From the NCBI GenBank assembly GCA_035390665.1, contig DAOOUC010000001.1, positions 108,634 through 140,633 on the forward strand: a DNA stretch of 32,000 nt. Reading direction: 5' to 3'. The translations under genes were made by a program, and so were the position numbers. The DNA comes from an archaeon. Lineage in GTDB: Archaea; Iainarchaeota; Iainarchaeia; Iainarchaeales; CSSED10-239. Of this stretch, positions 6,671 through 31,243 are shown piece by piece (position 1 is the first letter of the stretch; each line of letters opens with the position of its first letter). A model generated the notes under the pieces. That model ran no database searches, was not told the DNA's origin, and worked only from the letters and a program-made list of their open reading frames with translations.

Positions 6671-6886
6671 TTATAATCTTTCAAATTCGTCTTTAGAAAT
6701 GTTTAAGGTCTTTAAAATCTGATGTATTGTTCCAATTTTTAAAATTTTGTGATTAGGAATAACAAGTATTTTATTTTCCTGATTTTTAAAAATAAGGTGG
6801 CTCCCTTTTTGTCTAATTAATTTATATCCTTGTTTTTCAATAATTTCACAAACGTACTTTGAAGAAGTGTTTTGTAATTTAGACAT
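6671..6886 (-). CDS. hicA: HicA-family mRNA-interferase toxin
   Basis: About 71 aa. IEKQGYKLIRQKGSHLIFKN...ILVIPNH..LKIGTIHQILKTLNIS is the YcfA/HicA fold signature with the catalytic GSH. The track start at 6892 is GTG; the ATG at 6886 overlaps the hicB stop by 8 nt. Confidence 0.75.
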   Translation of the reverse strand: MSKLQNTSSKYVCEIIEKQGYKLIRQKGSHLIFKNQENKILVIPNHKILKIGTIHQILKTLNISKDEFERL

Positions 6887-7112
6887 TAACACTCACTTGC
6901 ATTTGTTTAATAGAAATCGAAGACACAAGATTTTTTAATTTGGTTTTATTTATTTCTTCAGTGTATATCTCTATTGCTTCTTTAATATTTTTTAGAGTAT
7001 CTTTCTCTGTTTCTCCTTCAGAAATACAACCAGGAAGAGAAGGCACATATGCAGTATATCCCCCTTCTTCTTGCTTTTCTAAAATTATATCAAATTTCAT
7101 AGTCTTTTTCAT
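6879..7112 (-). CDS. hicB: HicB-family antitoxin (UPF0150 type, no obvious DNA-binding extension)
   Basis: MKFDIILEKQEEGGYTAYVPSLPGCISEGETEKDTLKNIKEAIEIY is the HicB N-terminal domain signature. The ORF extends to an ATG at 7211, but the extra 33 aa look non-homologous. Internal starts at 7112 or 7100 are more likely; the start is uncertain. Confidence 0.7.
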   Translation of the reverse strand: MKKTMKFDIILEKQEEGGYTAYVPSLPGCISEGETEKDTLKNIKEAIEIYTEEINKTKLKNLVSSISIKQMQVSVNV

Positions 7113-7250
7113 ATATATTACTGATTTAATATATTTAAATATAGCTGGTTTTGTTTTTTGGAATTGTGAGAATTTTTCAAATAATTTTTTGATAATTACA
7201 AAAATTTCCATTTATAATTATTTCTTATCTTAATATATATGTGATAATTT

Positions 7251-7573: not shown

Positions 7574-8848
7574 TTATTTGCTTAAACTTAAATACAATAA
7601 ATTATCTCTTTGATAATATCCTTGTAAATTTAATTCTATTTCTGTTTTATTTAAATCCTCTGGATAATCTAAAAGTACATCTGTTGTTGGTTCTTTATAG
7701 TTGTATTTCTTTCCAGAAATTATAACTTCAGTTGTATCAACAGAAGCAAGAACAGTAAATTTTAATTCTTGGTTGTTTAATTTATTTTTTAATTCAGAAG
7801 CATTTATATCAGAATAATCAAATTCAATATAAGCAGTAACTTCTGGTTCTTGTAGTATTTCTGTATTGGTAATTTCTAAAGCAGAAATTAATTTTGTTTT
7901 TGTCTCCAAGTATTTTTCAAAAGTGATATTATTATCAAAATTAATTGTAGTTATATTTTCATCAACTAAATAATCAACAAAGCCCTTTTCTTCTTTTAAT
8001 ATATTTAATTTACTCTCAATTTCGGTTTTGTTTTTATCAGCAGTATTAATTTGTAATTGTTTAGTAATCTGGTATTCAAAAGAAGTATTTTCGTAGCTTT
8101 CTTTAACTTTATTTTCAATTTCTGTTTTATTTAACTTATCTAAAGAATAATTTATTTGACTATAGATTTTATCTTTAAATTCTGTGATTTTAAAGTTTTC
8201 ATAGCCAATAAGCATTTGGAATTGGTTGCTATTATTTATTTGTTCAATTCCTCTTGATTGTATAAGTTCTGTTCCTCTAAATGTTGCATATGCTGCAACT
8301 GAAAGATTGTCTCCTTTTAATGTTTCCATTCCAAGAATCCCTTCCATATTTTGTACAATAAATTCATATTCTATTTCTTGGTTTTGATCGTTTGTAAATT
8401 TTACTTTTTCAGGTATTTCTAATAATCCAAATTGATAAAATTCAGGTGTTTCAAAAATATTTAGATTTTTTATGCTATCAATTATTTCTTGTTTTTTTTC
8501 AGGAACAACACTTAAAGTTATTATAAGATTAATGTTTCCATCTGCATCTGGCCTAAATTCTATTTGTTTGTTTTTTATTCCAGAGACATCAAGTAGTTTT
8601 GTGTTTATTGAGGTTTCTTCAAAATCTAAAGGTCTTCCCGCAGCAATAATTTGAGGGAATAGTTCTCCAACATTAGCATCAATTGTAGCAGTATAACTTA
8701 CAAGTTCTAAATTTTGATTAGTATCTATTGGAGTATAGTCCTCTCCAGGCGTGCTTGTATTGTCGCTAAATGTAATCATAGCAAATAAAGAGCCCACAAA
8801 AAGTATTACAATTAATAAAGAAAATATTGTTTTTTTATCCATTTTCAT
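7574..8848 (-). CDS. hypothetical N-terminally anchored extracellular protein
   Basis: 424 aa with an ATG start. Signal/anchor helix KKTIFSLLIVILFVGSLFAMITF, then a long Asn/Glu/Ile-rich region with many N-x-S/T sequons. The motif NKTEIE occurs three times. No family recognised. Confidence 0.55.
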   Translation of the reverse strand: MKMDKKTIFSLLIVILFVGSLFAMITFSDNTSTPGEDYTPIDTNQNLELVSYTATIDANVGELFPQIIAAGRPLDFEETSINTKLLDVSGIKNKQIEFRPDADGNINLIITLSVVPEKKQEIIDSIKNLNIFETPEFYQFGLLEIPEKVKFTNDQNQEIEYEFIVQNMEGILGMETLKGDNLSVAAYATFRGTELIQSRGIEQINNSNQFQMLIGYENFKITEFKDKIYSQINYSLDKLNKTEIENKVKESYENTSFEYQITKQLQINTADKNKTEIESKLNILKEEKGFVDYLVDENITTINFDNNITFEKYLETKTKLISALEITNTEILQEPEVTAYIEFDYSDINASELKNKLNNQELKFTVLASVDTTEVIISGKKYNYKEPTTDVLLDYPEDLNKTEIELNLQGYYQRDNLLYLSLSK

Positions 8849-8928: not shown

Positions 8929-9855
8929 ATGTCTTTAAAACTAGGGAAAATAAAATTAAAAAATAAAGGTATTCTTGCACCGATGTTAGAATATACAAAT
9001 CTTTCTTTTAGACAGCTTTGTGCAAAAAATAATTGTGCTTTGGCTTACACAGAGATGATTCACACTAGTTACATTTTAAATTCTCCAATAGACGAAATAA
9101 AAAATAAAACAAAAGATGAAGACTATCCTGTTTCTTTGCAGTTAGTTGGGGATTTTACAAATACTAAAGAAACAATTGATGCTTTTACTAAAGTTCAAGA
9201 CATAGAAGATTACGATATTATTGACTTTAATCTGGGATGTCCATCTCCAAAAATTGCAGCAGGAAAAGGAGGGGCAATTCTTCTTAAAGATATTTCAAAA
9301 GTTTCTAAAACTTTAAAAGAAATAAAAGAAATAAGCAATAAGCCAATAACTGCAAAAATTAGATTAGGATATGATAAAGATAATTCTAAAGATATTTTAA
9401 ATAAATTAGAACTTTCTGGAATTGATGCTTTAGCTATTCATGGCCGCTTAGGTGTTTCTGATTATTCAATACCTTCAGATTATAAAAAAGTAATTTCTTT
9501 AGCAAAAGAAACCTCTTTACCAATAATCTATAACGGAGATATTACTTTAGAAACTTCTGATTCTTTTAAAGGCATTGATGAATTTAGTGGATTAATGGTT
9601 GGAAGAGATGCCGTAAGAAACCCAAGTATTTTTTCTAAGATTGCAGGTATCAAACAAAAAACAATCCAAGAAAATATTTCTTTGTTTTTAAAGATTTCAA
9701 AAAAATACAATAACTCAATAATAAATCAAAAACTTGTACTTCTACAAATGCTTGCGGGTTTTAGTGGAGCAAGACAATTGAGAGCGAAATTAACAACTTT
9801 AAAAACACAAGAAGAATTAGATTTGTTTTTAGAAAAACACAAAATAGACAATTAA
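8929..9855 (+). CDS. dus: tRNA-dihydrouridine synthase (Dus family, FMN TIM barrel)
   Basis: LAPMLEYTNLSFRQLC, DFNLGCPSPKIAAGKGGAILL (catalytic Cys loop), AKIRLG, AIHGR, NGDI. Confidence 0.8.
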   Translation: MSLKLGKIKLKNKGILAPMLEYTNLSFRQLCAKNNCALAYTEMIHTSYILNSPIDEIKNKTKDEDYPVSLQLVGDFTNTKETIDAFTKVQDIEDYDIIDFNLGCPSPKIAAGKGGAILLKDISKVSKTLKEIKEISNKPITAKIRLGYDKDNSKDILNKLELSGIDALAIHGRLGVSDYSIPSDYKKVISLAKETSLPIIYNGDITLETSDSFKGIDEFSGLMVGRDAVRNPSIFSKIAGIKQKTIQENISLFLKISKKYNNSIINQKLVLLQMLAGFSGARQLRAKLTTLKTQEELDLFLEKHKIDN

Positions 9856-10533
9856 AAGTATAAGTAAAACTATCAAAAAAGATTTCCAATTTCTAAATAT
9901 AAACAGAAATATATTTTTAAAAAATTCAAATACATATTCTAAAAATTTTTTTGGATCTTTGATTTCATCAAGCATTTCAATAAAAAGGTCTTTATTGTCT
10001 TTTGTTTTTTGATTAATAATATTAAAATTATTAATTTTACCTAAAACCGCATCAAGAGAAAGTTCATGGTTTTCAAAATTACATTTCCAAATCGGGATGT
10101 ACATTTCTTCAAACCCACTTAAAGTTAAATTGTCTTTATCTACTTCAAATTTACAAGATAGCATTTTAGCAATTATGTCTTGCGCTTCAGCTTTAGTAAG
10201 TAGTGATTTTTTTAATCTTATCTCTACTTTTTCAAGGGCAATATCAATGGTGTCTATATTTTGAGGGGTTTCATGCTCTAATAGTTTAAGATATTCTTCT
10301 TGAGATCTATTTGTTAAAGAATTTAGTGCAACTTGCCCAGTATAATGCTTATACACGTTGTTTTTTTTAGAATCAACATCATAGAAACAGACCCAAAAAG
10401 GGACAATATTAAGGTGGAAGTTATTTTTAGTAATATTCACCTTATGTCCTTTCCTGTTAAATTCTTTTTGAACTATAGAAACTGCTTCTTCAAGAGTTAT
10501 CTTAACAGGAAAAGCATTCTTGTTTAATTTCAT
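9829..10533 (-). CDS. hypothetical tail-anchored membrane protein with an internal two-fold repeat
   Basis: 234 aa with a C-terminal TM helix (SFLIVLLILLIVYFVFF). Two modules of about 45 aa each start with T-x-x-EA-x-x-I(V/I)-x-K and end with (V/I)P(F/I)W-x-C-x-(Y/F). Lies 13 nt downstream of sepF on the same strand. Confidence 0.5.
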   Translation of the reverse strand: MKLNKNAFPVKITLEEAVSIVQKEFNRKGHKVNITKNNFHLNIVPFWVCFYDVDSKKNNVYKHYTGQVALNSLTNRSQEEYLKLLEHETPQNIDTIDIALEKVEIRLKKSLLTKAEAQDIIAKMLSCKFEVDKDNLTLSGFEEMYIPIWKCNFENHELSLDAVLGKINNFNIINQKTKDNKDLFIEMLDEIKDPKKFLEYVFEFFKNIFLFIFRNWKSFLIVLLILLIVYFVFF

Positions 10534-10546
10534 TTTTTAAATGAAT

Positions 10547-10891
10547 TTATCTTTTTTTAACAATTTTTACTTTTGATGGTGTTAAAAGAATCTTTGATGG
10601 TGAGATCATTGCAAGGTCTCCGCCTGTATCTTTAACAAACATCTTAATTTGTCCTAAAAATTGTTTTGCTCTTTGAGCATTTCTTTTTGTTAAGTTCTCA
10701 ACATCTAAAAGAACAAGATTTTTTTGTTTTAATTCTTTTATTGTTTCTTCAACTTCTGCGTTTGTTTGTAAGCTGATTGGTTTTACCCAAAAGTCTACGT
10801 CTTCTGGTTCTTCCTCAACTTCCATATTGTTTAAGTAGTCGTCTACGTCTAGGTCTTCTCTTTTTGAGAAAACGCCGTCAAAAAATGCCAT
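10547..10891 (-). CDS. sepF: archaeal SepF-like cell-division protein (FtsZ membrane anchor family)
   Basis: 114 aa. Acidic linker (DVDDYLNNMEVEEEPEDVD), then VKPISLQTNAEVEETIKELKQKNLVLLDVENL ... VKDTGGDLAMISPSKILLTPSKVKI, collinear with archaeal SepF. Short hydrophobic N-terminus MAFFDGVF. GAGGTGG Shine-Dalgarno upstream. Confidence 0.75.
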   Translation of the reverse strand: MAFFDGVFSKREDLDVDDYLNNMEVEEEPEDVDFWVKPISLQTNAEVEETIKELKQKNLVLLDVENLTKRNAQRAKQFLGQIKMFVKDTGGDLAMISPSKILLTPSKVKIVKKR

Positions 10892-11084
10892 GTTTCTCCA
10901 CCTCTAATTTTTCCCCTTTTTATTTAATTTAAAATACTAGTAATAAATATATTGAACCAAAATATATAAAAACGAATTGTTGTATATGCGGTTGTTTTTT
11001 TCTAAAAAAATAAAAGCAAATGCTTTTAAATACATATAGTTTAATTAGCACTAATTTATATGGTTTTTTGGTTATATATTCTAT

Positions 11085-12248
11085 ATGAAATATACTCACA
11101 TTATTATTCATTATTCAGAGATTGCAATTAAGAAAGACAATAGAAGTACTTTTGAAAATATTCTTATTAAAAATCTAAAAGAGTGTCTAGCGATTGATGT
11201 TTCTCAAATCTACAAACGATTTGGAAGAGTTATTTGTGTATTATCAGAAACCGCAAATTTAGAAAATATTAAATTCACTCTATCTAAAATACCAGGGGTT
11301 CATAGTTTTTCTTTTTGTTTAACAACAGTTCAAGATTTAGAAGAAATTAAAAAAACAGCAAAAGATATTGCAGAAAATACAACCTTTGAAAATTTCAGAG
11401 TATCTTCTAAAAGATCATTTAAGGGCTTTAAGTATACTTCTCAAGAAATTGATAGGCTTGTTGGCGAAGAAATCTTTGAAAATCTTAAAAAGAAAGTAAA
11501 ATTAAAAAATCCAGAACTAGAAATTAATATTGAAGTTACAGAAAAGGAAGTTTTTGTTTATACTAATAAAGAAACACATATAGGAATTGGTGGACTTCCA
11601 GTTGGTTCAACAGGAACTGTAGTGTGCTCTCTTTCTGGGGGAATTGATAGTCCTGTTTCAGGGTATATGCTAAACAAAAGAGGGTGTAAGGTAGTTTATG
11701 CACACATTCAAAGTAATAATCTAGTAACAAAAGAAGTTGAAGAAAAAATCTTTAAGCTTTGTTCTACTTTAAGAAACTATCAAGGAAGAACAAAACTAAT
11801 AGTAATTCCTTTTTCTGAGATTCAAAAACAATTGTTAATGGTTGTTCCTGCAGATTATAGAATGATAATTTATAGAAGATTTATGTTTAGAATAATTAAC
11901 AAGTTAGCAGAAAAAGAAGGCGCTCTTGGAATTGTTACAGGAGACTCTGTCGGTCAAGTTGCTTCTCAGACACTTGAAAACTTAAACTGTATTTATGAGG
12001 CTTCAAAGCTTCCAATTTTTTCCCCATTGATTGGTTTAAACAAAGACGAGATTATTGAAATTTCTCAAAAGATTGGAACCTATGATATTTCAATTATGCC
12101 ATATCCTGACTGTTGTTCCTTTATGGTTGCAAGGCACCCTAAGACAAGAGGAAAGATTGAAGAAGTAAAAGACATTGAAAGCAACATCAAGAATATTGAT
12201 GCATTAGTAGATGATGCAATATCAAAAGCAAAAGAGCACATCTTTTAA
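11085..12248 (+). CDS. thiI: tRNA 4-thiouridine synthase ThiI (THUMP + PP-loop, no rhodanese domain)
   Basis: HYSEIAIKKDNR (N-terminal ferredoxin-like/THUMP region), PP-loop SLSGGIDSPV, GDSVGQVASQTLENL, PLIGLNKDEII. Confidence 0.85.
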   Translation: MKYTHIIIHYSEIAIKKDNRSTFENILIKNLKECLAIDVSQIYKRFGRVICVLSETANLENIKFTLSKIPGVHSFSFCLTTVQDLEEIKKTAKDIAENTTFENFRVSSKRSFKGFKYTSQEIDRLVGEEIFENLKKKVKLKNPELEINIEVTEKEVFVYTNKETHIGIGGLPVGSTGTVVCSLSGGIDSPVSGYMLNKRGCKVVYAHIQSNNLVTKEVEEKIFKLCSTLRNYQGRTKLIVIPFSEIQKQLLMVVPADYRMIIYRRFMFRIINKLAEKEGALGIVTGDSVGQVASQTLENLNCIYEASKLPIFSPLIGLNKDEIIEISQKIGTYDISIMPYPDCCSFMVARHPKTRGKIEEVKDIESNIKNIDALVDDAISKAKEHIF

Positions 12249-12272: not shown

Positions 12273-13832
12273 ATGTTTTCAATAAACTTAAATCAAAAGA
12301 AAAAGGCCCTTGAACCACTTATTGCAACTATTTTGTTAATAGTTGTTTCTGTAATTTTAGTTACAATTGTTTTAACTTGGGGCAAGAACTTTTCAGTAGA
12401 AGAATTAAATAAAACAAATAATATTATTTACGTAAAATCAGATATAAGTAACTATATACAATATAAAACAAGAAGTAATACAACAAGCGAAAACAACATT
12501 TTAGAAATAAAAAATATACATCCAACAGAAACTGCAACAATTGTCGGATATAAGATATTATCTCCAAATAGTAAATTTAGATTTTTAGACGATTATCAAT
12601 TTAGTCTTGATGAAAATGCTACATTATCTCCCGGTCAATCAATTTTTTTAGGATTAGCCTGTACGCCAGAGCAAACATTTAATGTTGAATTATTAACAAG
12701 TGATAGCAAATATATTTTTATAAAATATAATAGTCTTAATTCTAGTCCAGCAAGTTGTATAAAAGACATGGATTTTGGTTGGCATCACGCATGTGTGGTT
12801 TTAGCAACGGGCAAAGTAAAATGTTGGGGGCGAAATGATAATGGCCAATTAGGAGATGGCACAATAGCTCAAAAAAAAATACCAATAGAGGTCTTAGATA
12901 TAAATTCAGGGGTTGCAATAACCGCCGGAGATTTACACACGTGTGTTGTTTTGAGTTCAGGAGAAATAAAATGTTTTGGAGATAATCCTTATGGTCAATT
13001 AGGTAATCAAAATACAACAGATAGCAACTTTCCAGTAACTGTTTTGGGAATAAATAATGCAATAAAAGTTTCAGGTGGTTGTTGGCACACATGCGCATTA
13101 CTAAATACTGGTGAAATAAACTGTTGGGGGGCAAATACAAATGGCCAATTAGGTAATGGTACAAAGACAAATAGTTTAATACCAGTTTCTGTTATTGATT
13201 CAAATAATGATATTATTACAAACTTTGTAGATGTAAAAGTAGGCTGTACTAATAGTTGTGCATTACTAAATAACGGACAAATAATGTGTTGGGGTAATAA
13301 TCAATATGGGAAGTTAGGAGATGGCACAACAACAGATAAAAATACTGCAACACCCGTTTTAAATGTGGAAAATGCAATGCAAATAAGTATTGGTTCAGAA
13401 TATGGTGGTTGCTTGCGAGAGCACAACGGAACAGTTAAATGTTGGGGGCGAAATAATTTTGGACAAATTGGAGATGGCACAAACACAGATCAGAACACAC
13501 CTACACAAGTTTTACAAATTACAGATGCAATAGATATTGATAGCGGGAATGGTCACAATTGCGCAGTCCTATCCAATAATGAATTAAAATGTTGGGGACA
13601 AAATAGTGCCGGGCAATTGGGGGACGATACATGGGTAAATAAATCTGTACCCACCACCACAGTAAATTTAATTGATTCAAAAGACGTGGTTCTAGGAGAT
13701 GAATTTAGTTGTGTTAAATCAATATATGGTGAATTAAGATGTTTTGGCAGTAATGGTCAAGGGCAGTTAGGTTTAGGAAATACAACTGCCAGTAAAGTTC
13801 CGTTAGATATAAATAATTCTTTTTATGATTGA
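12273..13832 (+). CDS. archaeal type IV pilin-like protein fused to a seven-blade RCC1 beta-propeller
   Basis: N-terminus MFSINLNQKKKALEPLIATILLIVVSVILVTIVLTWGKNF is a class III signal plus pilin helix. Its first ~45 aa closely match the pilins at 27301 and 27805. Residues ~165-519 carry seven repeats of the RCC1 hairpin C(W/F)G-x-N-x-x-GQLG-(D/N)-G-T. Confidence 0.8.
   Translation: MFSINLNQKKKALEPLIATILLIVVSVILVTIVLTWGKNFSVEELNKTNNIIYVKSDISNYIQYKTRSNTTSENNILEIKNIHPTETATIVGYKILSPNSKFRFLDDYQFSLDENATLSPGQSIFLGLACTPEQTFNVELLTSDSKYIFIKYNSLNSSPASCIKDMDFGWHHACVVLATGKVKCWGRNDNGQLGDGTIAQKKIPIEVLDINSGVAITAGDLHTCVVLSSGEIKCFGDNPYGQLGNQNTTDSNFPVTVLGINNAIKVSGGCWHTCALLNTGEINCWGANTNGQLGNGTKTNSLIPVSVIDSNNDIITNFVDVKVGCTNSCALLNNGQIMCWGNNQYGKLGDGTTTDKNTATPVLNVENAMQISIGSEYGGCLREHNGTVKCWGRNNFGQIGDGTNTDQNTPTQVLQITDAIDIDSGNGHNCAVLSNNELKCWGQNSAGQLGDDTWVNKSVPTTTVNLIDSKDVVLGDEFSCVKSIYGELRCFGSNGQGQLGLGNTTASKVPLDINNSFYD
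12765..13829 (+). repeat. seven tandem RCC1-type coding repeats (about 50 aa / 150 nt period)
   Basis: Blade cores: KCWGRNDNGQLGDGT, KCFGDNPYGQLGNQN, NCWGANTNGQLGNGT, MCWGNNQYGKLGDGT, KCWGRNNFGQIGDGT, KCWGQNSAGQLGDDT, RCFGSNGQGQLGLGN. DNA-level similarity is visible, e.g. aaatgttgggggcgaaat at both about 12821 and about 13437. Confidence 0.8.
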
Positions 13833-13837
13833 TTTTT

Positions 13838-14875
13838 ATGACAGATAAAAGAGTGGTTGTTGGTGTTTCTGGTGGCGTAGACTCAAGTATGGCTCTTGTA
13901 GTTCTTCAGAATAAAGGCTATACACCAATTGCAGTTTCATTAAAGCTTCCTGTTTGGATTGGGGCAACTTGTAAAGAAAATTCTTGTTGTACGGATAAGT
14001 CAATTGCTATTGCAAAAGATGTTTGTAAAAAATTAGGAATAGAACATCACATAGTTGATGAAAGAAAAAACTTTGAAAAAGAAGTTGTTGGTTATTTTAA
14101 AAAAGAATTAAAGAATAACAGAACTCCAAATCCTTGTGTTGTGTGTAATAGATTTTCTAAGATTAAAGCACTTATAGATTTTGCAGACAAGCACAAAATC
14201 CCTTTTGTTGCAACAGGGCATTATGCTAAGATAAAAGAAGGTTCTCTTTGTAAACCAAAAGATAAAGAGAAGGATCAAACCTATGGTCTTTGTCTTCTAA
14301 GAAAAGAATGGTTAAAAAGAATTATTTTTCCATTAGAGGATTTGACTAAAGAACAAGTTTATAAGTTAGCCCAGAAGCAAGATTTTGATTATTTTTCTAA
14401 AACTAAGCAAAGCCAAGATTTTTGTTATGTCTCAGGAAATGATATTTCTAAGTTTATTGAAAAAGAGTTAGGAAATAAACCAGGAAATATTGTTACAACA
14501 ACAGGAGAGATTCAAGGAAAGCATAATGGTTTATGGTATTACACTCTAGGCCAAAGAAGAGGGCTTGGAAGAAATGGCACAAAGTATTATGTGTGTGGAT
14601 TTGATACTAAAAAAAATCAGTTAATTGTCACAAGTTCTCTTGAAAGTAAAATTAAAGAAATTATTATTGAAAAAGTAAATCTTTTAGATAAACTTCCAAA
14701 AAAAATTAAAGTTAAAGTAAGGTACACACCAAACGAGATTCCTGCAAAAATACAATTGCTTTCAAATAATACTGCAAAAGTTATTTTTGATAACCCCCAG
14801 GCTGTTGTTACTCCCGGACAATTCTGTGTGTTTTATTCTAAAGATAAATGCCTTGGTGGAGGAATCATAAAATGA
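13838..14875 (+). CDS. mnmA: tRNA-specific 2-thiouridylase MnmA (PP-loop ATPase)
   Basis: VVVGVSGGVDSS PP-loop, TPNPCVVCN (catalytic Cys), KDQTYGL, SQDFCYV (second catalytic Cys), GGGII C-terminus. The track start at 13829 is TTG; the first ATG is at 13838. Confidence 0.85.
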   Translation: MTDKRVVVGVSGGVDSSMALVVLQNKGYTPIAVSLKLPVWIGATCKENSCCTDKSIAIAKDVCKKLGIEHHIVDERKNFEKEVVGYFKKELKNNRTPNPCVVCNRFSKIKALIDFADKHKIPFVATGHYAKIKEGSLCKPKDKEKDQTYGLCLLRKEWLKRIIFPLEDLTKEQVYKLAQKQDFDYFSKTKQSQDFCYVSGNDISKFIEKELGNKPGNIVTTTGEIQGKHNGLWYYTLGQRRGLGRNGTKYYVCGFDTKKNQLIVTSSLESKIKEIIIEKVNLLDKLPKKIKVKVRYTPNEIPAKIQLLSNNTAKVIFDNPQAVVTPGQFCVFYSKDKCLGGGIIK

Positions 14876-16079: not shown

Positions 16080-16192
16080 TTTGCTTTTCAAATTCAACAC
16101 ACTTAAAAAGGCTTTTGTTCTTAATATATAATATTCTCTAGTGAAATAAAGATAGGTAATAGATTATTTTAAATTTGGAGAAAAGAGAAAGA

Positions 16193-17410
16193 ATGGCAGA
16201 GAATATTTTTTATAATTTTTTAAATGAAAATTCGGTTTTTACAGATAAATCAAAGATATCTCCACATTATGCTCCAGAAAAACTTCCTTTTAGAGATGAA
16301 CAAATAAAGGATTTATCTTTATGGCTCTCTCCAATTTTAAAAAAAGCAAAACCACATAATGTTTTTATTTATGGTAAAGTTGGAACAGGAAAAACAACAG
16401 TTGTTAAGCACGTTACAAGTCAATTAGAAAAGTTTTCTAAAGACCAGCATTTACCATTACAAACAGTTTATTTAAATTGTAGAAATTATCAAACAAAATA
16501 CACGGTTTTAGTGTATTGCGTTCAATTATTTTATCCTGATCAAAATTTCTTTGGTTATTCTAGATCTTTTATTTATGATAAATTTCTAACATTTATTAAA
16601 GAAAATAAAATTAATTTTGTTTTGATTCTTGATGAAGTGGACAAAGTTAAAGAAAAAGAAATTGATGATTTAATTTATACACTTACAAGAACAAACGATG
16701 AACTTGAAGGGGGTTCTGTTTCAATTATTGGAATCTCAAATAATCTTTTCTTTAAAAACAATTTAGATTCAAGAACAAAAAGTACTCTTTGTGAACAAGA
16801 AGCGGTCTATCCCCCATATAATGCAGATGAATTAAGAGATATTTTAGATCAAAGAATAGATATTGCATTTAAAAAAAACGTAGTTGATAGTTCTGCGATT
16901 AATGCAGCAGCTGCAATTGCTGCAAAAGAATCAGGAGATGCAAGAAGAGCAGTTATGTTGTTACTTAGGGCCGGAGAGATTTCTGATTTAAATAATCTTC
17001 CAAAAGTAACAGATAAAGAAGTTTATGAAGCAAAAGAAAAAGTTGAACAAGAGGTTATGAAAAGTATGGTTTTAACTCTTCCAGTTCAACTACAATTAGT
17101 TTTATTTGCAATTGCAGAAAGTTCTTTAAAACCAAAAGGGATTTTAGCAATGTCAGGTATGGAAACAACAGATTCAAATGTTTTATACTCTGGAGAAATC
17201 TACGATAAATATTGTTCTCTTTGTGATAAATATTCTGAAAAAGGAGTTTCAATAAGATGGTTTAGAGAATATATTACTGAACTTGAAACATATGGTTTTA
17301 TTTCTACAACAATTTCAGGAAAAGGAGTTAAAGGAAATACAACTCTTATAAGACTAGGCGTAGATGCACAGAGTATTATTGATTTGTTAAAACCAGAATT
17401 TAATAATTAA
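16193..17410 (+). CDS. cdc6: Orc1/Cdc6 replication initiator (AAA+ plus winged helix)
   Basis: LPFRDEQIKDL, Walker A IYGKVGTGKTT, Walker B LILDEVD, GISNN, sensor-2 GDARRAVMLLLRAGE, C-terminal wH. The track start at 16175 is TTG; the first ATG is at 16193. Confidence 0.9.
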   Translation: MAENIFYNFLNENSVFTDKSKISPHYAPEKLPFRDEQIKDLSLWLSPILKKAKPHNVFIYGKVGTGKTTVVKHVTSQLEKFSKDQHLPLQTVYLNCRNYQTKYTVLVYCVQLFYPDQNFFGYSRSFIYDKFLTFIKENKINFVLILDEVDKVKEKEIDDLIYTLTRTNDELEGGSVSIIGISNNLFFKNNLDSRTKSTLCEQEAVYPPYNADELRDILDQRIDIAFKKNVVDSSAINAAAAIAAKESGDARRAVMLLLRAGEISDLNNLPKVTDKEVYEAKEKVEQEVMKSMVLTLPVQLQLVLFAIAESSLKPKGILAMSGMETTDSNVLYSGEIYDKYCSLCDKYSEKGVSIRWFREYITELETYGFISTTISGKGVKGNTTLIRLGVDAQSIIDLLKPEFNN

Positions 17411-25025: not shown

Positions 25026-25910
25026 ATGAAAGAAGAACAAAATAAACAAGAAAGCAAGAAAGATGCTTTCGAAGAAAAATTGTATACTTTATTCTTGCCA
25101 TTAACAGAAAAGATAGAAATGAAAGAACTTGAAGAAAAGTTAAGGCAAGCAGATAGTCCAGATGAATTGGATTATTATTTATCTAAGCATTTGTTTTTTG
25201 CTGTATTTGTACCTTTATTATTTTTACTGTGCGGTTCTTTTATATTTATTTTTTTAGATCTGCCACAATATTTACCTAATTTTTTTATTTTTTGTTTTTT
25301 TTCAGTGTTTGCAATAATTATTTATGCAATAATTAATCCTTATCTTCAAGTTGGTTCAAAGACATCCAATATAAAAAATAGTTTGTCTCTTGCAATCTTA
25401 AGTATGTCAAGTATTGCAGAATCTGGTGCACCTCCAGAAACAATGTTTCACACAAGTGCAATAAAATCAGAAACCCCGTATTTAAGTAAAGAATTTGAAA
25501 AATTAAATGGATATTTAGCATTAGGATATTCTTTACCTCAAGCAATAGATCATTTGTGTACAAGCACACCATCTCCAGAATTAAAAAAATTCTTATTAGA
25601 ATTAAAATCCAGTTTAGAATCTGGTGGTTCTTTACCTGAATTTATGAAAAAAAAGGCAGAGCATGCTCAGTTCACTTATAAATTAATGCTTGATGGGATG
25701 AATAAAAGAGCAGAAACTTTTGGAGATATTTATTCTGCAATAGTTATTGCTGGTCCACTATTCCTATTTTCTTCAATTATGCTTTTAGGTATGATTGGGG
25801 GTGGCGGATTTGGAGGAATGAGTATTGAAACTTTGATGGTTATTGGGGTATTTGGGCTTGTTCCATTAATTAATATTTTTTTTATAATAATTTTACAATT
25901 CGTATCATAA
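25026..25910 (+). CDS. type IV filament platform protein, single T2SS-F domain (FlaJ/PilC N-half or TadB-like)
   Basis: 294 aa. TM helices flank a cytoplasmic T2SS-F-type domain: LSLAILSMSSIAESGAPPETMF...YSLPQAIDHLCTSTPSPELKKFLLELKSSLESGGSLPEFMKKKAE. Confidence 0.7.
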   Translation: MKEEQNKQESKKDAFEEKLYTLFLPLTEKIEMKELEEKLRQADSPDELDYYLSKHLFFAVFVPLLFLLCGSFIFIFLDLPQYLPNFFIFCFFSVFAIIIYAIINPYLQVGSKTSNIKNSLSLAILSMSSIAESGAPPETMFHTSAIKSETPYLSKEFEKLNGYLALGYSLPQAIDHLCTSTPSPELKKFLLELKSSLESGGSLPEFMKKKAEHAQFTYKLMLDGMNKRAETFGDIYSAIVIAGPLFLFSSIMLLGMIGGGGFGGMSIETLMVIGVFGLVPLINIFFIIILQFVS

Positions 25911-26738
25911 ATGAAAATAAATCCAAGATTAGCATTTCTGCTAGATTATGCAGCAAAAGGAGCGATTGGTTCACTTATACTTGGAATATTTTTAATTAGA
26001 ACAAAATTGATGATCTTTACAATTTTTCCAGTAATTTTAGCAGTAGGATTAGCATCTATAATTTACACAAAAAAAATAAGGTCATTAGAGACCAACCTTT
26101 TTGTTTTTCTTGATGATCTAAAAGATTTATTGCAAGGTGGAATGAATATAGTTACAGCAATGGAAATTATAGCAGATCATGATTATGGGGCATTAAACGA
26201 ATACACTAAAAGAATTGCTGCACAATTAAAAATAGGTGTTGCATTTGAAGTAGCATTAATTGAAGTTTTTGGAGAAGTAGATAGTCCATTATTTAGTAAA
26301 ATTGCAAATGTAATTGCTGAAACCATGAAATATGGTGGTAATTTAATTAAAATATTTAGTTCTGTTTCAAATTATGTAAAATTAGTTGATGAAATGGGAG
26401 AAGAAAGAAGATCTAAAACATTTTCAACAGTCTTCTCATCCTATTTTATGTTTTTCATTTTTATTGCAATTATTTTAACTATCCAAATTGTTTTCTTACC
26501 AATGTTAACATCTAGTGATTTAAATGCAGTTGGTGGCGGAACCGGTGGTGCATCATTAGGTGATATTAATTTTAATGCATATTTCTTATATCTTTTAATA
26601 ATACAAGCAGGATTTGCAGGTCCAATAATTGGAAAAATTTCGGAAGGAAATGCGATTGCAGGAATTAAACATTCTATTATACTTTTAGTTATTTCAATTC
26701 CATTATATGTTTTAGTTTCATTGTTTTTTGTTAAGTAA
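25911..26738 (+). CDS. type IV filament platform protein, single T2SS-F domain (FlaJ/PilC C-half or TadC-like)
   Basis: 275 aa. LKDLLQGGMNIVTAMEIIADHDYGALNEY...LKIGVAFEVALIEVFGEVDSPLFSKIANVIAETMKYGGNLIKIF plus flanking TM helices. The ATG directly follows the TAA of the upstream half, in the same frame. Confidence 0.7.
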   Translation: MKINPRLAFLLDYAAKGAIGSLILGIFLIRTKLMIFTIFPVILAVGLASIIYTKKIRSLETNLFVFLDDLKDLLQGGMNIVTAMEIIADHDYGALNEYTKRIAAQLKIGVAFEVALIEVFGEVDSPLFSKIANVIAETMKYGGNLIKIFSSVSNYVKLVDEMGEERRSKTFSTVFSSYFMFFIFIAIILTIQIVFLPMLTSSDLNAVGGGTGGASLGDINFNAYFLYLLIIQAGFAGPIIGKISEGNAIAGIKHSIILLVISIPLYVLVSLFFVK

Positions 26739-26752
26739 GTAAATAAGTAATA

Positions 26753-26760
26753 TTTATAAA
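26753..26760 (+). promoter_or_regulatory. candidate TATA box for the pilin gene string
   Basis: TTTATAAA lies about 40 nt upstream of the 26800 ATG, in the only real intergenic gap of the locus. Weak evidence, because the whole genome is AT-rich. Confidence 0.25.
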
Positions 26761-26799
26761 TATATATATAATATTAATAATTAGAATAAAGAGATTAAT

Positions 26800-27276
26800 A
26801 TGTTTAAGATAAATACAAATAAAGGTGTTTCTCCATTAATTGCTACAATTTTACTTGTAGCTGTATCTTTATCTCTTGCAGGAATATTATATTCTTGGGC
26901 ATCTCAAAATGCAGGAGATACAGTAAATAGTGTTACAGAAACATCTAAAAAGTGGGATTATTGTAAAGGTATAACCCTAAATATGGAATATGGGTGTAGA
27001 TACGATTCTACAACCGGAATAAGTTTTATACTTTATGATAATTCAACAGTTGATTTTGATGAAAATATTATAATTAATATTATTGATGCTAATAACAATA
27101 TAGGAACAGCAACAGTTACACCAAATTTTCAAGGGCGTGCAATGGTAATTAATAATACAGTATATTCAGAATCTGAGACCCAGCCTCTAACAGATCTTAC
27201 AGAACCATTACAACTTGTTAAAGTATACATGAATGGGTGTCCAGATAGAACAGCACAGACAAGAAGCTGTGATTAA
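26800..27276 (+). CDS. archaeal type IV pilin-like protein, paralog 1 (Pilin_N / class III signal peptide)
   Basis: MFKINTNKG-VSPLIATILLVAVSLSLAGIL. Four Cys: C-x10-C after the helix and C-P-x8-C next to the C-terminus. Confidence 0.75.
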   Translation: MFKINTNKGVSPLIATILLVAVSLSLAGILYSWASQNAGDTVNSVTETSKKWDYCKGITLNMEYGCRYDSTTGISFILYDNSTVDFDENIIINIIDANNNIGTATVTPNFQGRAMVINNTVYSESETQPLTDLTEPLQLVKVYMNGCPDRTAQTRSCD

Positions 27277-27287
27277 TTTTTATAAAA

Positions 27288-27292
27288 GGAGG
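27288..27292 (+). promoter_or_regulatory. Shine-Dalgarno sequence (GGAGG) for pilin paralog 2
   Basis: AAAGGAGGAAATTAAA-ATG, with 8 nt spacing to the ATG at 27301. Confidence 0.6.
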
Positions 27293-27300
27293 AAATTAAA

Positions 27301-27780
27301 ATGAATAAGAAAGCTTTAGAACCATTAATTGCAACAATACTTTTAATCGTTGTTGCAGTAATTTTGGTAACAATAGTTCTTGCATGGGGTAAGAACTTTT
27401 CAACAGAAGGATTAAATAAAACAAATGATGTTTTAAATGATGATTGTGCTGGCGCACAACTTGCAATTTCAGATTGTGAAATAATGAGTGATGGAAATAT
27501 TACATTTCAATTAAAGAATATAGGTCAAAATTATTCTTTTGTTAGTACAGATACATTTAAGATAATGTTATCTCATAATTCTTTAGGTGCAGAAGCCGAA
27601 AAAACATTAACATATGCTGTAGGATCTTTTCCAGGATTAACACCAGGCCAAACAGTTATTGCAAAAGTAGCACCAGTAACTTCAACTTGGACAGATGATG
27701 CAGGAGACGTTATTAATGTAATGGTAAGATCTGGAACATGTCCACAAGCAAGTGTAACAGTTTCAAATTGTCACAGATAA
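27301..27780 (+). CDS. archaeal type IV pilin-like protein, paralog 2
   Basis: MNKKA-LEPLIATILLIVVAVILVTIVLAWGKNFSTEGLNKTNDV. Cys frame DDC-x9-C ... C-P-x8-C-HR. Confidence 0.8.
   Translation: MNKKALEPLIATILLIVVAVILVTIVLAWGKNFSTEGLNKTNDVLNDDCAGAQLAISDCEIMSDGNITFQLKNIGQNYSFVSTDTFKIMLSHNSLGAEAEKTLTYAVGSFPGLTPGQTVIAKVAPVTSTWTDDAGDVINVMVRSGTCPQASVTVSNCHR
27316..27435 (+). repeat. 120-bp direct repeat, copy A (5' constant module of pilin paralogs 2 and 3)
   Basis: By my alignment, 119 of 120 nt are identical to 27823-27942, with a single C/T difference at the 33rd position. Flanking coding sequence is highly diverged. Confidence 0.85.
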
Positions 27781-27789
27781 ATAATTTTA

Positions 27790-27794
27790 GGAGG
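27790..27794 (+). promoter_or_regulatory. Shine-Dalgarno sequence (GGAGG) for pilin paralog 3
   Basis: TTAGGAGGAGAATAAAAT-ATG, with 10 nt spacing to the ATG at 27805. Confidence 0.6.
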
Positions 27795-27804
27795 AGAATA
27801 AAAT

Positions 27805-28278
27805 ATGTTTAAGAAAAAAGGATTAGAACCATTAATTGCAACAATACTTTTAATTGTTGTTGCAGTAATTTTGGTAACAATAGTTCTTGCATGGGGTAAG
27901 AACTTTTCAACAGAAGGATTAAATAAAACAAATGATGTTTTATCAGATGATTGTTCAGCAGCAACAATAAATGTTTCAAATTGTGATTATAATGCAGCAG
28001 CAGGAACAAATGGAACAATTAGTTTCTTGTTAAAAAATACAAGTAGTACCTACTCTTTTGTTGCAGATGATTTTACTGCAAACTATATAGATGACGTAAA
28101 TTCATTAAATAGTGAAATGAGTTCCGTTTTTACTACAACACCAGGCGCAATAACACCAGGCGCAACAGTAATTGTTGCAGATACAGGTGTAAATATTACA
28201 GACACAACAAGAGTAAAAATGCAAGTAAGATCAAAAACCTGTCCAGGTATAGCTTTTACTGAAGTAACCTGTTCATAA
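27805..28278 (+). CDS. archaeal type IV pilin-like protein, paralog 3
   Basis: MFKKKG-LEPLIATILLIVVAVILVTIVLAWGKNFSTEGLNKTNDV. Cys frame DDC-x9-C ... C-P-x8-C-S. Confidence 0.8.
   Translation: MFKKKGLEPLIATILLIVVAVILVTIVLAWGKNFSTEGLNKTNDVLSDDCSAATINVSNCDYNAAAGTNGTISFLLKNTSSTYSFVADDFTANYIDDVNSLNSEMSSVFTTTPGAITPGATVIVADTGVNITDTTRVKMQVRSKTCPGIAFTEVTCS
27823..27942 (+). repeat. 120-bp direct repeat, copy B
   Basis: See copy A at 27316-27435. Confidence 0.85.
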
Positions 28279-28310
28279 ATGGAAATAAAAAAGAAGAAAA
28301 TTGGATAATT

Positions 28311-28790
28311 ATGACTCTAAGAAAAAAAGCAGTTTCGCCAATAATCGCAACCATTCTTTTAGTAGTGATTGCTCTAATATTAGTTGGAATACTTCTATCT
28401 TGGGGTCAAAATTTTATTCAAAGAAGTACTGCTGATGCAGATAACGCAATTGATAGAAAATGTATTGGCGCAGACATTGAATTTAGTGTGTGTGAATATG
28501 TTAGTACATCAGGATCAGAAGCATTAACTTTAATAATTGTTAATACAGGAAAAATAGATTTTAAAGAAGATACAAATCTATCTTTGACAATTATTGATTC
28601 TGAAAATAATCTATTTGAAGCAACTGATGAAACAAATAATCTTTTAGAAGGCGCTGCTTTTGTTAAAGGTGCATCCACACAAAAAGAAATTGATTTGAGT
28701 GTGTCTTCTACAGACTTAGTCGCACCATTTGATGTAACAATAAGAAGTAGTCAATGTCCGACTTTTTTTAAGAAAACCACTTGTAGATAA
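28311..28790 (+). CDS. archaeal type IV pilin-like protein, paralog 4
   Basis: MTLRKKA-VSPIIATILLVVIALILVGILLSWGQNF. Cys frame C-x9-C ... C-P-x7-C-R. Confidence 0.75.
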   Translation: MTLRKKAVSPIIATILLVVIALILVGILLSWGQNFIQRSTADADNAIDRKCIGADIEFSVCEYVSTSGSEALTLIIVNTGKIDFKEDTNLSLTIIDSENNLFEATDETNNLLEGAAFVKGASTQKEIDLSVSSTDLVAPFDVTIRSSQCPTFFKKTTCR

Positions 28791-30308: not shown

Positions 30309-30698
30309 TCAATATACTCCAATCTCTATATATACATTATGATTGGAATTATTAATATACTTTATGGAATTGGACAGTAGTTTTATTTTTGTGGCATTTT
30401 GACAATTTATTTCTTTCTGTGTTTGATTAATTTTTATATATCCGCAAGTATTAGGGAAAAGAGACACAAAATTTTGTTCTAAAATATTAATATTATCAAT
30501 TTGTAAATGTTGAGAAGTAATCAAAAGATCATTAATTTTTTGTATTTTTATTAAATCTAAGTTATTTTCTTGTTCTTGGCCATTGCTTAAATTAAAAACA
30601 AGAATAAAAAAAGCACAAAATAAAAGAGCAAAAATCCCATCAGCACTAAATATTTGACCTTTAACAAAAACTAATTTCTGCGATTTTAAATTCCCCAT
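30309..30698 (-). CDS. small prepilin-like protein (KGQ-type class III signal candidate)
   Basis: MGNLKSQKLVFVKG-QIFSADGIFALLFCAFFILVF, followed by a ~95-aa soluble part. Last of four such genes in a row. Confidence 0.45.
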   Translation of the reverse strand: MGNLKSQKLVFVKGQIFSADGIFALLFCAFFILVFNLSNGQEQENNLDLIKIQKINDLLITSQHLQIDNINILEQNFVSLFPNTCGYIKINQTQKEINCQNATKIKLLSNSIKYINNSNHNVYIEIGVY

Positions 30699-31062
30699 TA
30701 TGGATTACCCCTCTAGTAAATGTTTTTTTTATATCAGGAGATTGATCATAGATTGTATTATTTCCTATTTTTATTCTGCACACATTTTGTTCTTCCAATT
30801 GTGTAAGGATCTTAGTATTTAACTTTATTTCTAAAATATTTTTGTAGCAAAGGCCTTTTCTATTTAGCGGGGTATATGCAAAGAAATCACAATCAGATAC
30901 AAGTTTTTCAACAAATAGTATTTCTTCTAATTCTTTTATATTTTGTTTTGTATTATCATCTTCTATCTTTATTTCATAGACATTATTGATGATTATAAAT
31001 AAAACAAAAATAGTTATTAATGTAAAAAACAAAAGATCAATAATCATTATTTGTCCTTTCAT
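30661..31062 (-). CDS. small prepilin-like protein (KGQ-type class III signal candidate)
   Basis: MKG-QIMIIDLLFFTLITIFVLFIIINN if started at the ATG at 31062. The track start at 31110 is TTG and adds 16 aa. Confidence 0.5.
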   Translation of the reverse strand: MKGQIMIIDLLFFTLITIFVLFIIINNVYEIKIEDDNTKQNIKELEEILFVEKLVSDCDFFAYTPLNRKGLCYKNILEIKLNTKILTQLEEQNVCRIKIGNNTIYDQSPDIKKTFTRGVIHNGEFKIAEISFC

Positions 31063-31243
31063 TTCTAATCCAATTGTGTTCTTTATAGTTTTGTTTAATA
31101 ATCTCATCAATTTTTTTATTAATAATAGGAGAAATCTCTAATTTTTCTTTAAGAATTAAAGCAACATCAATAAAAGTAGAGATAATTAAAATTGCCCCTA
31201 AAAGGCACAATAGAAATTCAATTGTAATTTGGCCTTTATTCAT
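31037..31243 (-). CDS. small prepilin-like protein with a canonical G(-1)/E(+5) class III signal (DUF361/Epd-like)
   Basis: MNKG-QITIEFLLCLLGAILIISTF gives Q-x-T-x-E-x-x-L after the Gly. About 68 aa. The ATG at 31243 overlaps the upstream stop by 8 nt; the track start at 31249 is TTG. Confidence 0.55.
   Translation of the reverse strand: MNKGQITIEFLLCLLGAILIISTFIDVALILKEKLEISPIINKKIDEIIKQNYKEHNWIRNERTNNDY

Follow-up and report, generated by a model that had tools for sequence, protein, structure and literature searches.

An archaeal RCC1-propeller protein as a candidate modular type IV pilin in an Iainarchaeota genome

In bacteria, modular pilins join a small pilin module to a bulky module that is not specific to pili and is probably displayed at the filament tip (PMC8179133). 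Here, we compare these and related systems with a pilin-RCC1 gene on the plus strand of an archaeal contig (DAOOUC010000001.1 of assembly GCA_035390665.1, Iainarchaeota). The gene lies in a stretch of 32,000 nucleotides (nt; positions 108,634 to 140,633 of the contig), which is called the window throughout and from whose first letter all positions are counted. The open reading frame (ORF), at 12273 to 13832, starts with ATG and encodes 519 amino acids (aa). NCBI lists the product of the same ORF as HOW29171.1, "hypothetical protein [archaeon]," and the Joint Genome Institute (JGI) data hold the same product. Four parts follow one another in the protein: a 12-residue basic leader, a hydrophobic helix, a predicted beta-sandwich (residues 50 to 162), and an RCC1 propeller (residues 163 to 519) (Table 1). 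We read it as an archaeal modular minor type IV pilin that would co-assemble with two pilins of the same window, termed class b below, and display its propeller as an adhesin; we put the probability of this reading at roughly 0.6.

The bacterial survey of Raynaud et al. (2021; PMC8179133) comprises more than 1,200 modular pilins with IPR012902 in 264 architectures, with the concanavalin A (ConA)-like lectin among the most frequent modules; Streptococcus sanguinis PilB (vWA) and PilC (ConA-like lectin) are described examples. The archaeal protein agrees with the two-module definition given there, having a pilin part (1 to 162) and an RCC1 part (163 to 519), and the ConA-like lectin (PF13385) is a frequent head in its own family as well. 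However, bacterial modular pilins are defined by the IPR012902 prepilin motif, and archaea lie outside the survey (the word is absent from PMC8179133). The N-terminus of the protein described here is instead of the archaeal, Pilin_N-like kind. Its predicted cleavage site, KKA↓LEPLIAT (the arrow marks the cut), has Glu at +2 rather than at +5, unlike the G↓F/M...E5 motif of IPR012902. Since this motif is lacking and the cutoffs of curated hidden Markov models (HMMs) for pilins are not reached, we file the protein as modular-pilin-like, a probable archaeal type IV pilin outside the bacterial family.

The combination of a pilin with an RCC1 domain has precedents. An original prediction, made from the DNA letters alone, had named no characterized pilin-RCC1 fusion, but Dataset S1 of Raynaud et al. 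(2021; PMC8179133) holds at least three singleton architectures with RCC1 repeats (IPR000408/PF13540), and PilX2 of Nanosynbacter lyticus TM7x (Saccharibacteria, candidate phyla radiation [CPR]) offers another case. PilX2 is a minor pilin of the thin pilus (T4P-2), in which a lollipop pilin module carries a heptabladed RCC1 propeller (PMC11623550). Its deletion lowered host binding from 10.6% to 4.6% with filaments still made, and it has been proposed to be a filament adhesin (PMC11623550). TM7x resembles the organism studied here in being ultrasmall with a reduced genome. When the two proteins are compared by architecture as described, PilX2 is a bacterial type IVa-like pilin encoded inside its pilus locus and has no predicted PilD signal peptide, whereas the archaeal protein, encoded off the pilus locus, combines a class III-type site (KKA↓LEP) with a beta-sandwich of archaeal type. 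The pilin-RCC1 architecture is already known in bacteria, and the protein described here is a new archaeal example of it, not a new kind of system.

Three further systems share single traits with this protein. The Sulfolobus bindosome proteins GlcS, AraS, and TreS also combine an archaeal class III N-terminus with a non-pilin functional domain, their genes are scattered off the assembly locus, and one base machinery is thought to serve many heads, in likeness to the family described below. Archaeal substrate-binding proteins that bear class III (SPIII) signal peptides are usually encoded off the pilus locus and were recently reported to be widespread (bioRxiv 10.64898/2026.04.22.720090). However, bindosome proteins as described have the helix only, without a pilin globular module, and carry solute-binding domains beside ABC transporters; the protein in this window has a full pilin module and a protein/glycan-interaction propeller, no transporter lies nearby, and the Pfam domains found in it are of the RCC1 type only. 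PilY1/PilC of bacterial type IVa pili also use a seven-bladed beta-propeller for adhesion, at the pilus tip. Rather than being a pilin itself, PilY1 is kept at the tip by minor pilins, and its propeller is of another family (IPR008707), whereas the archaeal protein carries its own pilin module and matches only RCC1-type Pfam families at E values up to 0.01. For the likeness of its helix to that of the class-b pilins (see below), the closest experimental analogy is that of Haloferax volcanii PilA1-6, which are encoded off the machinery, have a near-invariant H-domain, and are all assembled by PilB3/PilC3 (PMC4371748). The pilin-RCC1 protein shares its H-domain with the class-b pilins as PilA1-6 share theirs, although PilA1-6 are small pilins without an added module.

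Parts and folds of the pilin-RCC1 protein

The N-terminus reads MFSINLNQKKKA↓LEPLIATILLIVVSVILVTIVLTW, i.e., a short charged leader with a hydrophobic stretch directly after it, as in class III signal peptides. This stretch (residues ~12 to 36) is the sole hydrophobic segment of the protein, and AlphaFold2 (AF2) predicts a helix over residues 14 to 49. The N-terminus aligns with four small pilin-like ORFs in the window (26800 to 28790), the nearest being 27301 and 27805, in agreement with the original prediction. Over 40 codons around LEPLIATILL, 35 to 36 residues are identical to these two pilins, whose own identity to one another in this stretch is 97%. At the nucleotide level, identity is 79%, with 22 to 23 identical codons and 12 to 14 synonymous versus 4 to 5 nonsynonymous differences. 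Given the 79% identity with 12 to 14 synonymous differences, the shared pilin N-terminus is kept by selection at the protein level and does not stem from a misassembly. On the same figures, the idea that the 5' end of the pilin had recently been copied or converted was rejected. The two sequons (NFS and NKT) reported earlier as conserved are present in all three proteins. Processing sites predicted by FlaFind in characterized archaeal pilins are KA↓IS, RA↓LS, and RA↓VS (PMC4371748). In the module family to which the protein belongs, 143 of 150 members have the consensus [K/R][S/A/G]↓[I/L/V][S/E]P, which resembles these FlaFind-predicted PibD sites.

The part following the helix is predicted to be of pilin type. 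An AF2 model of the N-terminal 168 residues, built with 37 aligned homologs, has a mean predicted local distance difference test (pLDDT) score of 86.9 and consists of a helix (residues 14 to 49) followed by seven strands (62 to 153), so that the pilin fold of a long N-terminal helix plus a beta-sandwich is found at the level of prediction. The only solved structure matched at E ≤ 1e-3 is the archaeal type IV pilus subunit of Pyrobaculum calidifontis (8fk7_A; E = 7e-7). Pilins of S. solfataricus, S. islandicus, and S. acidocaldarius and Iho670 follow at E values of 1e-2 to 4e-2, and 6w8x, 8q30, 6nav, and 5kyh are also among the Protein Data Bank entries listed for this model. In the module alignment, Y93 is invariant, and C130 is found in 21 of 32 sequences.

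The remaining part of the protein is an RCC1-like propeller. Three RCC1-like families (Pfam PF00415, PF13540, and PF25390) were tested, and all matched far above their cutoffs: RCC1 in seven stretches (1.2e-53; 179.9 bits against a cutoff of 21.7), RCC1_2 also in seven (1.1e-52; 175 bits against 22), and WD40_RLD, the RCC1-like domain (8e-75; 252.8 bits against 150). All four Pfam families listed for the protein at E values up to 0.01 are of the RCC1 type. The blade motif [CM][WF]GxNxxGQLG recurs at residues 184, 234, 284, 339, 390, 440, and 490, and seven 50-nt repeats, spaced at 150 to 165 nt, are seen in the corresponding DNA. The full-length AF2 model has a mean pLDDT of 87, with values of 94 to 98 over residues 170 to 510 and a figure above 95 for residues 163 to 512, and its 28 strands form seven four-stranded blades. 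In a Foldseek search, the best match of this propeller among solved structures was UVR8 (4dnw_A; E = 3e-36; template modeling [TM] score, 0.90; root-mean-square deviation, 1.8 Å; 364 columns), with HERC2, RPGR, and RCC1 among the other matches. Both the seven consecutive blades and the closed propeller on a pilin helix, proposed from the letters of the sequence, are thus borne out by Pfam and, as far as a model can tell, by the predicted structure. The propeller (~39 kDa) starts at residue 163, directly after Cys162, and the junction, where only residues 155 to 159 have low confidence, has essentially no linker.

Homologs and repeated recovery support the reality of the gene. The identical 519-aa protein occurs on at least seven contigs; the five copies displayed were each recovered from a separate sample (JGI metagenomes in three cases, a Logan SRA assembly, and an ENA assembly), and the order thiI-X-mnmA is seen in every copy with visible flanking genes. 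Additionally, a search of other archaeal metagenome-assembled genomes (MAGs) for the same fusion, as had been suggested, returned colinear full-length pilin-plus-RCC1 homologs at 32 to 45% identity. Among the homologs, P0167 (605 aa; 44% identity over residues 1 to 500) shares the SCIKD junction and the ...YD C-terminus. P0248 (MEI8364765.1 at NCBI, "archaeon") and its cluster members P0311 to P0313 have 514 to 516 aa and 38% identity over residues 6 to 514. P0236 (1061 aa) lies on a 978-kb contig, whereas P0204 (286 aa), on a contig of 3,112 bp, has only the module and the first two blades, and P0277 and P0259 have a spacer between the module and RCC1. An artifact, either a chimeric assembly or a miscalled ORF joining a pilin fragment to an RCC1 gene, could be suspected from the GC content, which rises from 0.256 in the N-terminal part to 0.357 in the RCC1 part. 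However, both halves have a low GC content at third codon positions (GC3; 0.14 and 0.21), close to that of the flanking genes, and an identical product in the same context from five independent samples and assemblers, together with the colinear homologs, makes the chimera feared at the outset a negligible prospect. A recent horizontal transfer of the propeller was also considered and left no signal in GC3, and the ~40% identity to bacterial RCC1 proteins does not decide the matter. Bacterial RCC1 proteins with a double propeller dominated the full-length homolog search, and a pilin N-terminus is absent from all of them. Upstream of the gene, a scan for sigma-70 promoters and terminators gave counts at the level of shuffled sequence, and such a scan does not apply to archaea; TTTTAAT, ~27 nt before the ATG, could be a TATA box serving a leaderless mRNA, an observation to which we give little weight.

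Table 1. Positions of the pilin-RCC1 gene, its parts, its flanking genes, and the pilus locus in the window
Feature	Position	Strand	Basis or remark
Whole gene, modular pilin-RCC1 protein	12273..13832	+	519 aa plus stop; identical copies; colinear homologs P0167, P0248, P0236, P0204
Leader of class III-type signal peptide, MFSINLNQKKKA, residues 1-12	12273..12308	+	Predicted cleavage KKA↓LEP, read from sequence
Hydrophobic N-terminal alpha-helix (alpha1), residues 13-49, with WGKNFS and NKT sequons	12309..12419	+	Hydrophobicity, AF2, paralog alignment
Pilin globular module, predicted seven-strand beta-sandwich, residues 50-162, IVGYKI motif, Cys130/Cys162	12420..12758	+	AF2, structure match, profile
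Seven-blade RCC1-like beta-propeller, residues 163-519	12759..13829	+	Pfam, seven DNA repeats, AF2, UVR8 match
thiI, upstream flank	11085..12248	+	Pfam ThiI, THUMP, ThiI_fer
mnmA, downstream flank	13838..14875	+	Pfam tRNA_Me_trans N, M, and C domains
Two adjacent T2SSF (PilC/TadC-like) platform genes	25026..26738	+	Pfam T2SSF 5.8e-14 and 3.7e-17
Class-a pilin VSPLIATILLVAVSLSLAGILYSW	26800..27276	+	TIGR02537 31.4 bits (cutoff 20); same N-terminus in 12 further genomes
Two class-b pilins	27301-27780, 27805-28278	+	N-terminal 48 residues match the pilin-RCC1 protein; likely filament partners
Class-c pilin VSPIIATILLVVIALILVGILLSWGQNF	28311..28790	+	TIGR02537 33.2 bits (cutoff 20); kept across relatives

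Proposed filament assembly and rival explanations

The window contains a pilus locus with which the protein may be coupled. Two T2SSF genes, preceded by a gene for a Drg-type GTPase, are followed by four pilins (25026 to 28790), and no assembly ATPase adjoins this array. The T2SSF pair and pilin array are kept in 13 related loci of Iainarchaeota-like MAGs (L016, L018, L021, L023, L024, L026 to L030, L035, L040, and L047), 12 of them with both platform genes, at platform identities of 51 to 82%. Three pilin classes can be recognized across these genomes: a, of the 26800 type; b, with 27301 and 27805; and c, with 28311. Over the first 28 mature residues, the mean identity between modular pilins and class b within one genome is 80%, compared with 47% for class a and 56% for class c. 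Furthermore, modular pilins are closer to the class b of their own genome than to that of other genomes in all six genomes; of 720 label permutations, only 4 attain the value observed. In genomes where class b has PIVATILLVVV, for instance, the modular pilins have it as well, and both kinds of protein have LEP in the genome studied here. We read this matching as a probable co-evolution between subunits with a filament core and a peptidase in common.

The evidence, from anatomy and predicted folds to the family and the coupling to the pilus, agrees with the original prediction of a filament-displayed candidate adhesin, and the following sequence of steps can be proposed. The precursor would enter the membrane through its single N-terminal hydrophobic helix, and a prepilin peptidase of the PibD/FlaK type would cut the 12-residue basic leader at KKA↓LEP. 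The mature helix would then pack with the class-b pilins 27301 and 27805 in the core of a pilus assembled on the T2SSF pair, a co-packing that gains indirect support because the mature helices are nearly identical. As the ~39-kDa propeller joins the beta-sandwich with no real linker, steric considerations would place the subunit at the filament tip or sparsely along the filament. The outward-facing propeller would bind a protein or glycan on a host cell or another surface. Guanine-nucleotide exchange on Ran-type GTPases, the function of eukaryotic RCC1, is not expected for an extracellular domain.

It is important to consider the results that weigh against assembly into a pilus. Of the HMMs suggested for checking the protein, those for RCC1 stood far above their cutoffs, but Pilin_N (PF07790), with its cutoff at 25.2 bits, scored only 10.7 (E = 1); TIGR02537 is absent among the matches listed at E values up to 1. 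Since the curated pilin HMMs are below threshold or absent, the N-terminal homology rests on the paralogs and the family profile. TIGR02537 is passed by the paralogs 26800 and 28311 (Table 1) and by the module homologs P0121 (21.9 bits) and P0140 (20.6 bits), whereas 27301 and 27805 score 18.6 and 19.4 bits against the cutoff of 20. The fold matches to solved pilins have low TM scores (0.39 to 0.46), probably because of a differing angle between helix and domain. The loose resemblance that had been noted between residues ~45 to 165 and the globular part of the neighboring pilins did not hold, with a nonsignificant BLASTP match (E = 0.05 over 12 residues) and a probability of 1.3% in an hhalign comparison of the two family profiles. 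The excess of own-genome helix matching may owe something to gene conversion or to the relatedness of genomes, CAZPGO and JAQUVR being close. The gene itself lies 11 kb from the pilus locus amid tRNA-modification genes, so that co-regulation with the pilus is not evident. Neither a prepilin peptidase (Peptidase_A24) nor a T2SSE assembly ATPase was found in the window or in the 10 kb beyond each end (52 kb in all), and the window ORFs without a Pfam match include no GxGD protein with multiple transmembrane segments. The absence of the ATPase and the peptidase from these 52 kb is the main gap in the argument.

The whole pilin module as a paralog of 27301 and 27805 was also tried as an explanation and dropped, given the lack of significant BLASTP or hhalign similarity in the globular part. 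This region is a predicted pilin-type beta-sandwich of a different module family from that of the neighboring pilins.

Some of the same results could speak for other modes of display. A position off the pilus locus, 11 kb from the T2SSF genes, would also suit a bindosome-like arrangement, as proposed for the Sulfolobus sugar-binding proteins, with the class III N-terminus, once processed, serving only as an anchor in a short pseudopilus or close to the membrane and S-layer and the propeller acting at the cell surface instead of on long pili. We regard this as unlikely, because the protein, unlike bindosome substrates, keeps a full globular module between helix and head, has neither a substrate-binding-protein domain nor ABC-transporter neighbors, and has a helix that tracks the class-b pilins of its own genome. 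The subthreshold pilin HMMs, the single hydrophobic segment near the N-terminus, and the lack of a peptidase gene in the window or the 10 kb on either side would be compatible with an uncleaved signal-anchor, i.e., an ordinary N-in, C-out transmembrane helix holding an RCC1 ectodomain with no involvement of pilus machinery. Against it stand the ~90% identity of the helix and the next 15 residues to bona fide pilin paralogs in the face of synonymous divergence, the cleavage-site consensus kept through the family, and the adjoining domain with a predicted pilin fold, which together make the signal-anchor improbable.

A soluble RCC1 protein, released through a Sec signal peptide to act as a free binder or inhibitor like BLIP-II, is highly improbable. 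It could draw on BLIP-II being among the structural matches and on the bacterial origin of the nearest RCC1 relatives, whose N-termini are mostly Sec-type in appearance. However, none of the 119 best RCC1 matches, the protein itself aside, shares its N-terminus, and a conserved module of ~150 residues is unexpected within a signal peptide. Furthermore, the hydrophobic stretch of at least 24 residues continues as a 36-residue helix, and a stretch of 24 or more residues is too long for a typical Sec h-region. A modular minor pilin assembled with the class-b pilins thus remains our preferred reading.

A further group of class III-like substrates is found near the array. Four consecutive small ORFs on the minus strand (31236 to 31742, 31037 to 31243, 30661 to 31047, and 30309 to 30698) have sites of the Epd/Flp type: KKG↓FLSV, MNKG↓QITIEFLL, MKG↓QIMIID, and VKG↓QIFSAD. 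The 68-aa ORF with the MNKG↓QITIEFLL site scores 22.1 bits on Pfam Class_IIIsignal (cutoff, 23.7). The set is convergent with the T2SSF-pilin array, with endA, DUF357, and a TP_methylase-family gene in between, and looks like a second pilin set resembling the Methanococcus Epd pilins. Because of this second set with Epd/Flp-type sites, the organism probably has two kinds of class III substrates, the pilin-RCC1 protein belonging to the Pilin_N-like kind.

The carrier-module family and its heads

The N-terminal part of the protein belongs to a larger family. A profile of the N-terminal ~165 residues, made from the protein and four homologs, was searched against 1.84 billion representative proteins and matched 735 of them at E ≤ 1e-3 and 30 at E ≤ 1e-30, with the match at the extreme N-terminus in nearly all. 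This exhaustive search was the informative one; in a word-indexed search that used a module profile of 32 sequences, all proteins returned were below 300 aa, and the long fusions escaped it. Among the 150 best module-bearing representatives, 130 carry something after the module, since they are at least 250 aa long (median, 464 aa; maximum, 1271 aa). Besides the cleavage site, the signature of the module consists of the H-domain LIATILLIVV..., the motif [W/F]GKxF[T/S], and an invariant Tyr in IxGYKI, and a Cys pair near the module boundary (C130 and C162 in the pilin-RCC1 protein) is frequent. Among GTDB genomes, the module is present in MAGs that bear the titles Candidatus Iainarchaeum, "ainarchaeum," Diapherotrites, and unclassified archaeon; weaker matches, mostly of the helix only, occur in Forterrea, Woesearchaeota, and Nanoarchaeota MAGs.

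The heads are mostly modules of the lectin, adhesin, or propeller type. Pfam matches in 106 members were to GLUG (22), ConA-like Laminin_G_3 (19), Lcl_C (7), Peptidase_M26_N (6), RCC1 (5), DUF5018 (5), the DUF5122 propeller (4), CHB_HEX_C_1 (3), PKD (3), Kelch (2), NHL (2), DUF285 (2), and PT-HINT (2). Several members can occur in a single genome: in MAG CAZPGO01, at least 12 genes bear the module and are of sufficient length for a head, and eight complete ones that were scanned comprise five with ConA-like heads, one with Lcl_C, one with a weak fibrinogen-C-like match, and one without a match. Modular-pilin content also differs between near-identical strains, because on contig Ga0116241_10001723 the RIO kinase and S15 genes are separated by P0172, a modular pilin of 647 aa (L052, 6222 to 8165), and the same site is empty in the window (gap at 2314 to 2460) and in another sample. 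No paper on archaeal pilin-RCC1 proteins or on this carrier-module family was found in the open-access literature.

From these observations, two linked readings can be put forward together, and only tentatively, as we hold their joint truth for possible but somewhat doubtful. In one, Iainarchaeota-like DPANN would use a cassette system for heads, in which a single conserved carrier module of ~150 residues is matched to the class-b pilin of a single conserved pilus and bears interchangeable heads (lectins, GLUG, Lcl_C, and Kelch, NHL, or RCC1 propellers). As many as a dozen or more such genes per genome would be possible, inserted singly between housekeeping genes and varying by strain, and they might serve the recognition of hosts or surfaces in a manner comparable to the diversification of phage receptor-binding proteins. 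In the other, CPR bacteria and DPANN archaea would have converged on an RCC1 adhesin at the pilus tip, the RCC1-headed member being an independently evolved archaeal counterpart of the Saccharibacteria PilX2.

To our knowledge, the means by which DPANN archaea recognize partners or surfaces and become attached to them are largely unknown, because almost no DPANN have been cultured. If the above holds, the pilus would be a generic shaft, and specificity would lie in swappable head-bearing minor pilins, including this RCC1 protein. The pilin-RCC1 protein, P0172, and their relatives would then be concrete candidates for attachment factors, and the signature K/R-S/A/G↓I/L/V-S/E-P-LIATILL ... IxGYKI ... 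module boundary could be used to mine such factors from MAGs. Judged by the parallel to TM7x PilX2, DPANN archaea and CPR bacteria may have solved the same problem alike, which is relevant to episymbiosis. The individual gene brings no new principle; what stands out is the repertoire at the family level, with one carrier module, many heads, multiple copies per small genome, and a strain-variable set, together with the DPANN/CPR parallel.

The thiI-mnmA junction and neighboring genes

The gene lies between thiI and mnmA, as had been noted, with 24 bp after thiI and 5 bp between its stop and the called start of mnmA. In five related metagenome contigs (L054 to L058; thiI 68 to 82% identical), the order is SepF-thiI-mnmA-(HD)-HisPhos-Cdc6. 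The gap between thiI and mnmA is 11 to 12 bp in four of these contigs; in the fifth (L054), the mnmA alignment begins 68 bp after thiI with residue 18, so that a gene would not fit in between. Since thiI and mnmA are directly adjacent in the five relatives, the proposed insertion into a housekeeping block finds support, and the pilin-RCC1 gene is, as judged from gene order, a lineage-specific gain at an insertion-tolerant junction. At the same place in the closest relative, whose thiI is 92% identical, lies an ORF of 240 aa that is unrelated (L059, 794 to 1516), and the junction appears to be a recurrent insertion spot. A search around the gene for target-site duplications and signatures of mobile elements turned up nothing beyond the RCC1 repeats inside the gene and short matches of low complexity, and neither flanking repeats nor mobility genes are visible.

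The neighbors of the gene are SepF, thiI, mnmA, an HD protein, and a His-phosphatase. Gene content across the window is archaeal (S3Ae, S15, RIO, Cdc6, CDC48, tRNA-intron endonuclease, SepF, and NAC). The mnmA product is an MnmA-type tRNA 2-thiouridylase; MnmA is mainly a bacterial and organellar enzyme, so the mnmA of the window may be a bacterial acquisition. A HicA/HicB toxin-antitoxin pair (6671 to 7211, minus strand), identified by Pfam from the gene tables of matching contigs, adjoins the NAC gene.

Gene orientation flips from mostly minus to mostly plus at ~11 kb (window positions ~10890 to 11085), and the cumulative GC skew has its minimum between ~5 and 11 kb and rises steadily thereafter. 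A Cdc6/Orc1 gene lies 5 kb away (16175 to 17410), and a second Cdc6-like gene is found just past the end of the window (L050, 8555 to 9646). A replication origin may lie nearby. Next to SepF, a 234-aa protein without a Pfam match (9829 to 10533, minus strand) has a C-terminal transmembrane segment; the adjacency is kept in matching contigs, and the protein may be a SepF-associated membrane anchor. Finally, a 424-aa protein (7574 to 8848, minus strand), also without a Pfam match, has an N-terminal hydrophobic segment and is probably a surface or secreted protein.

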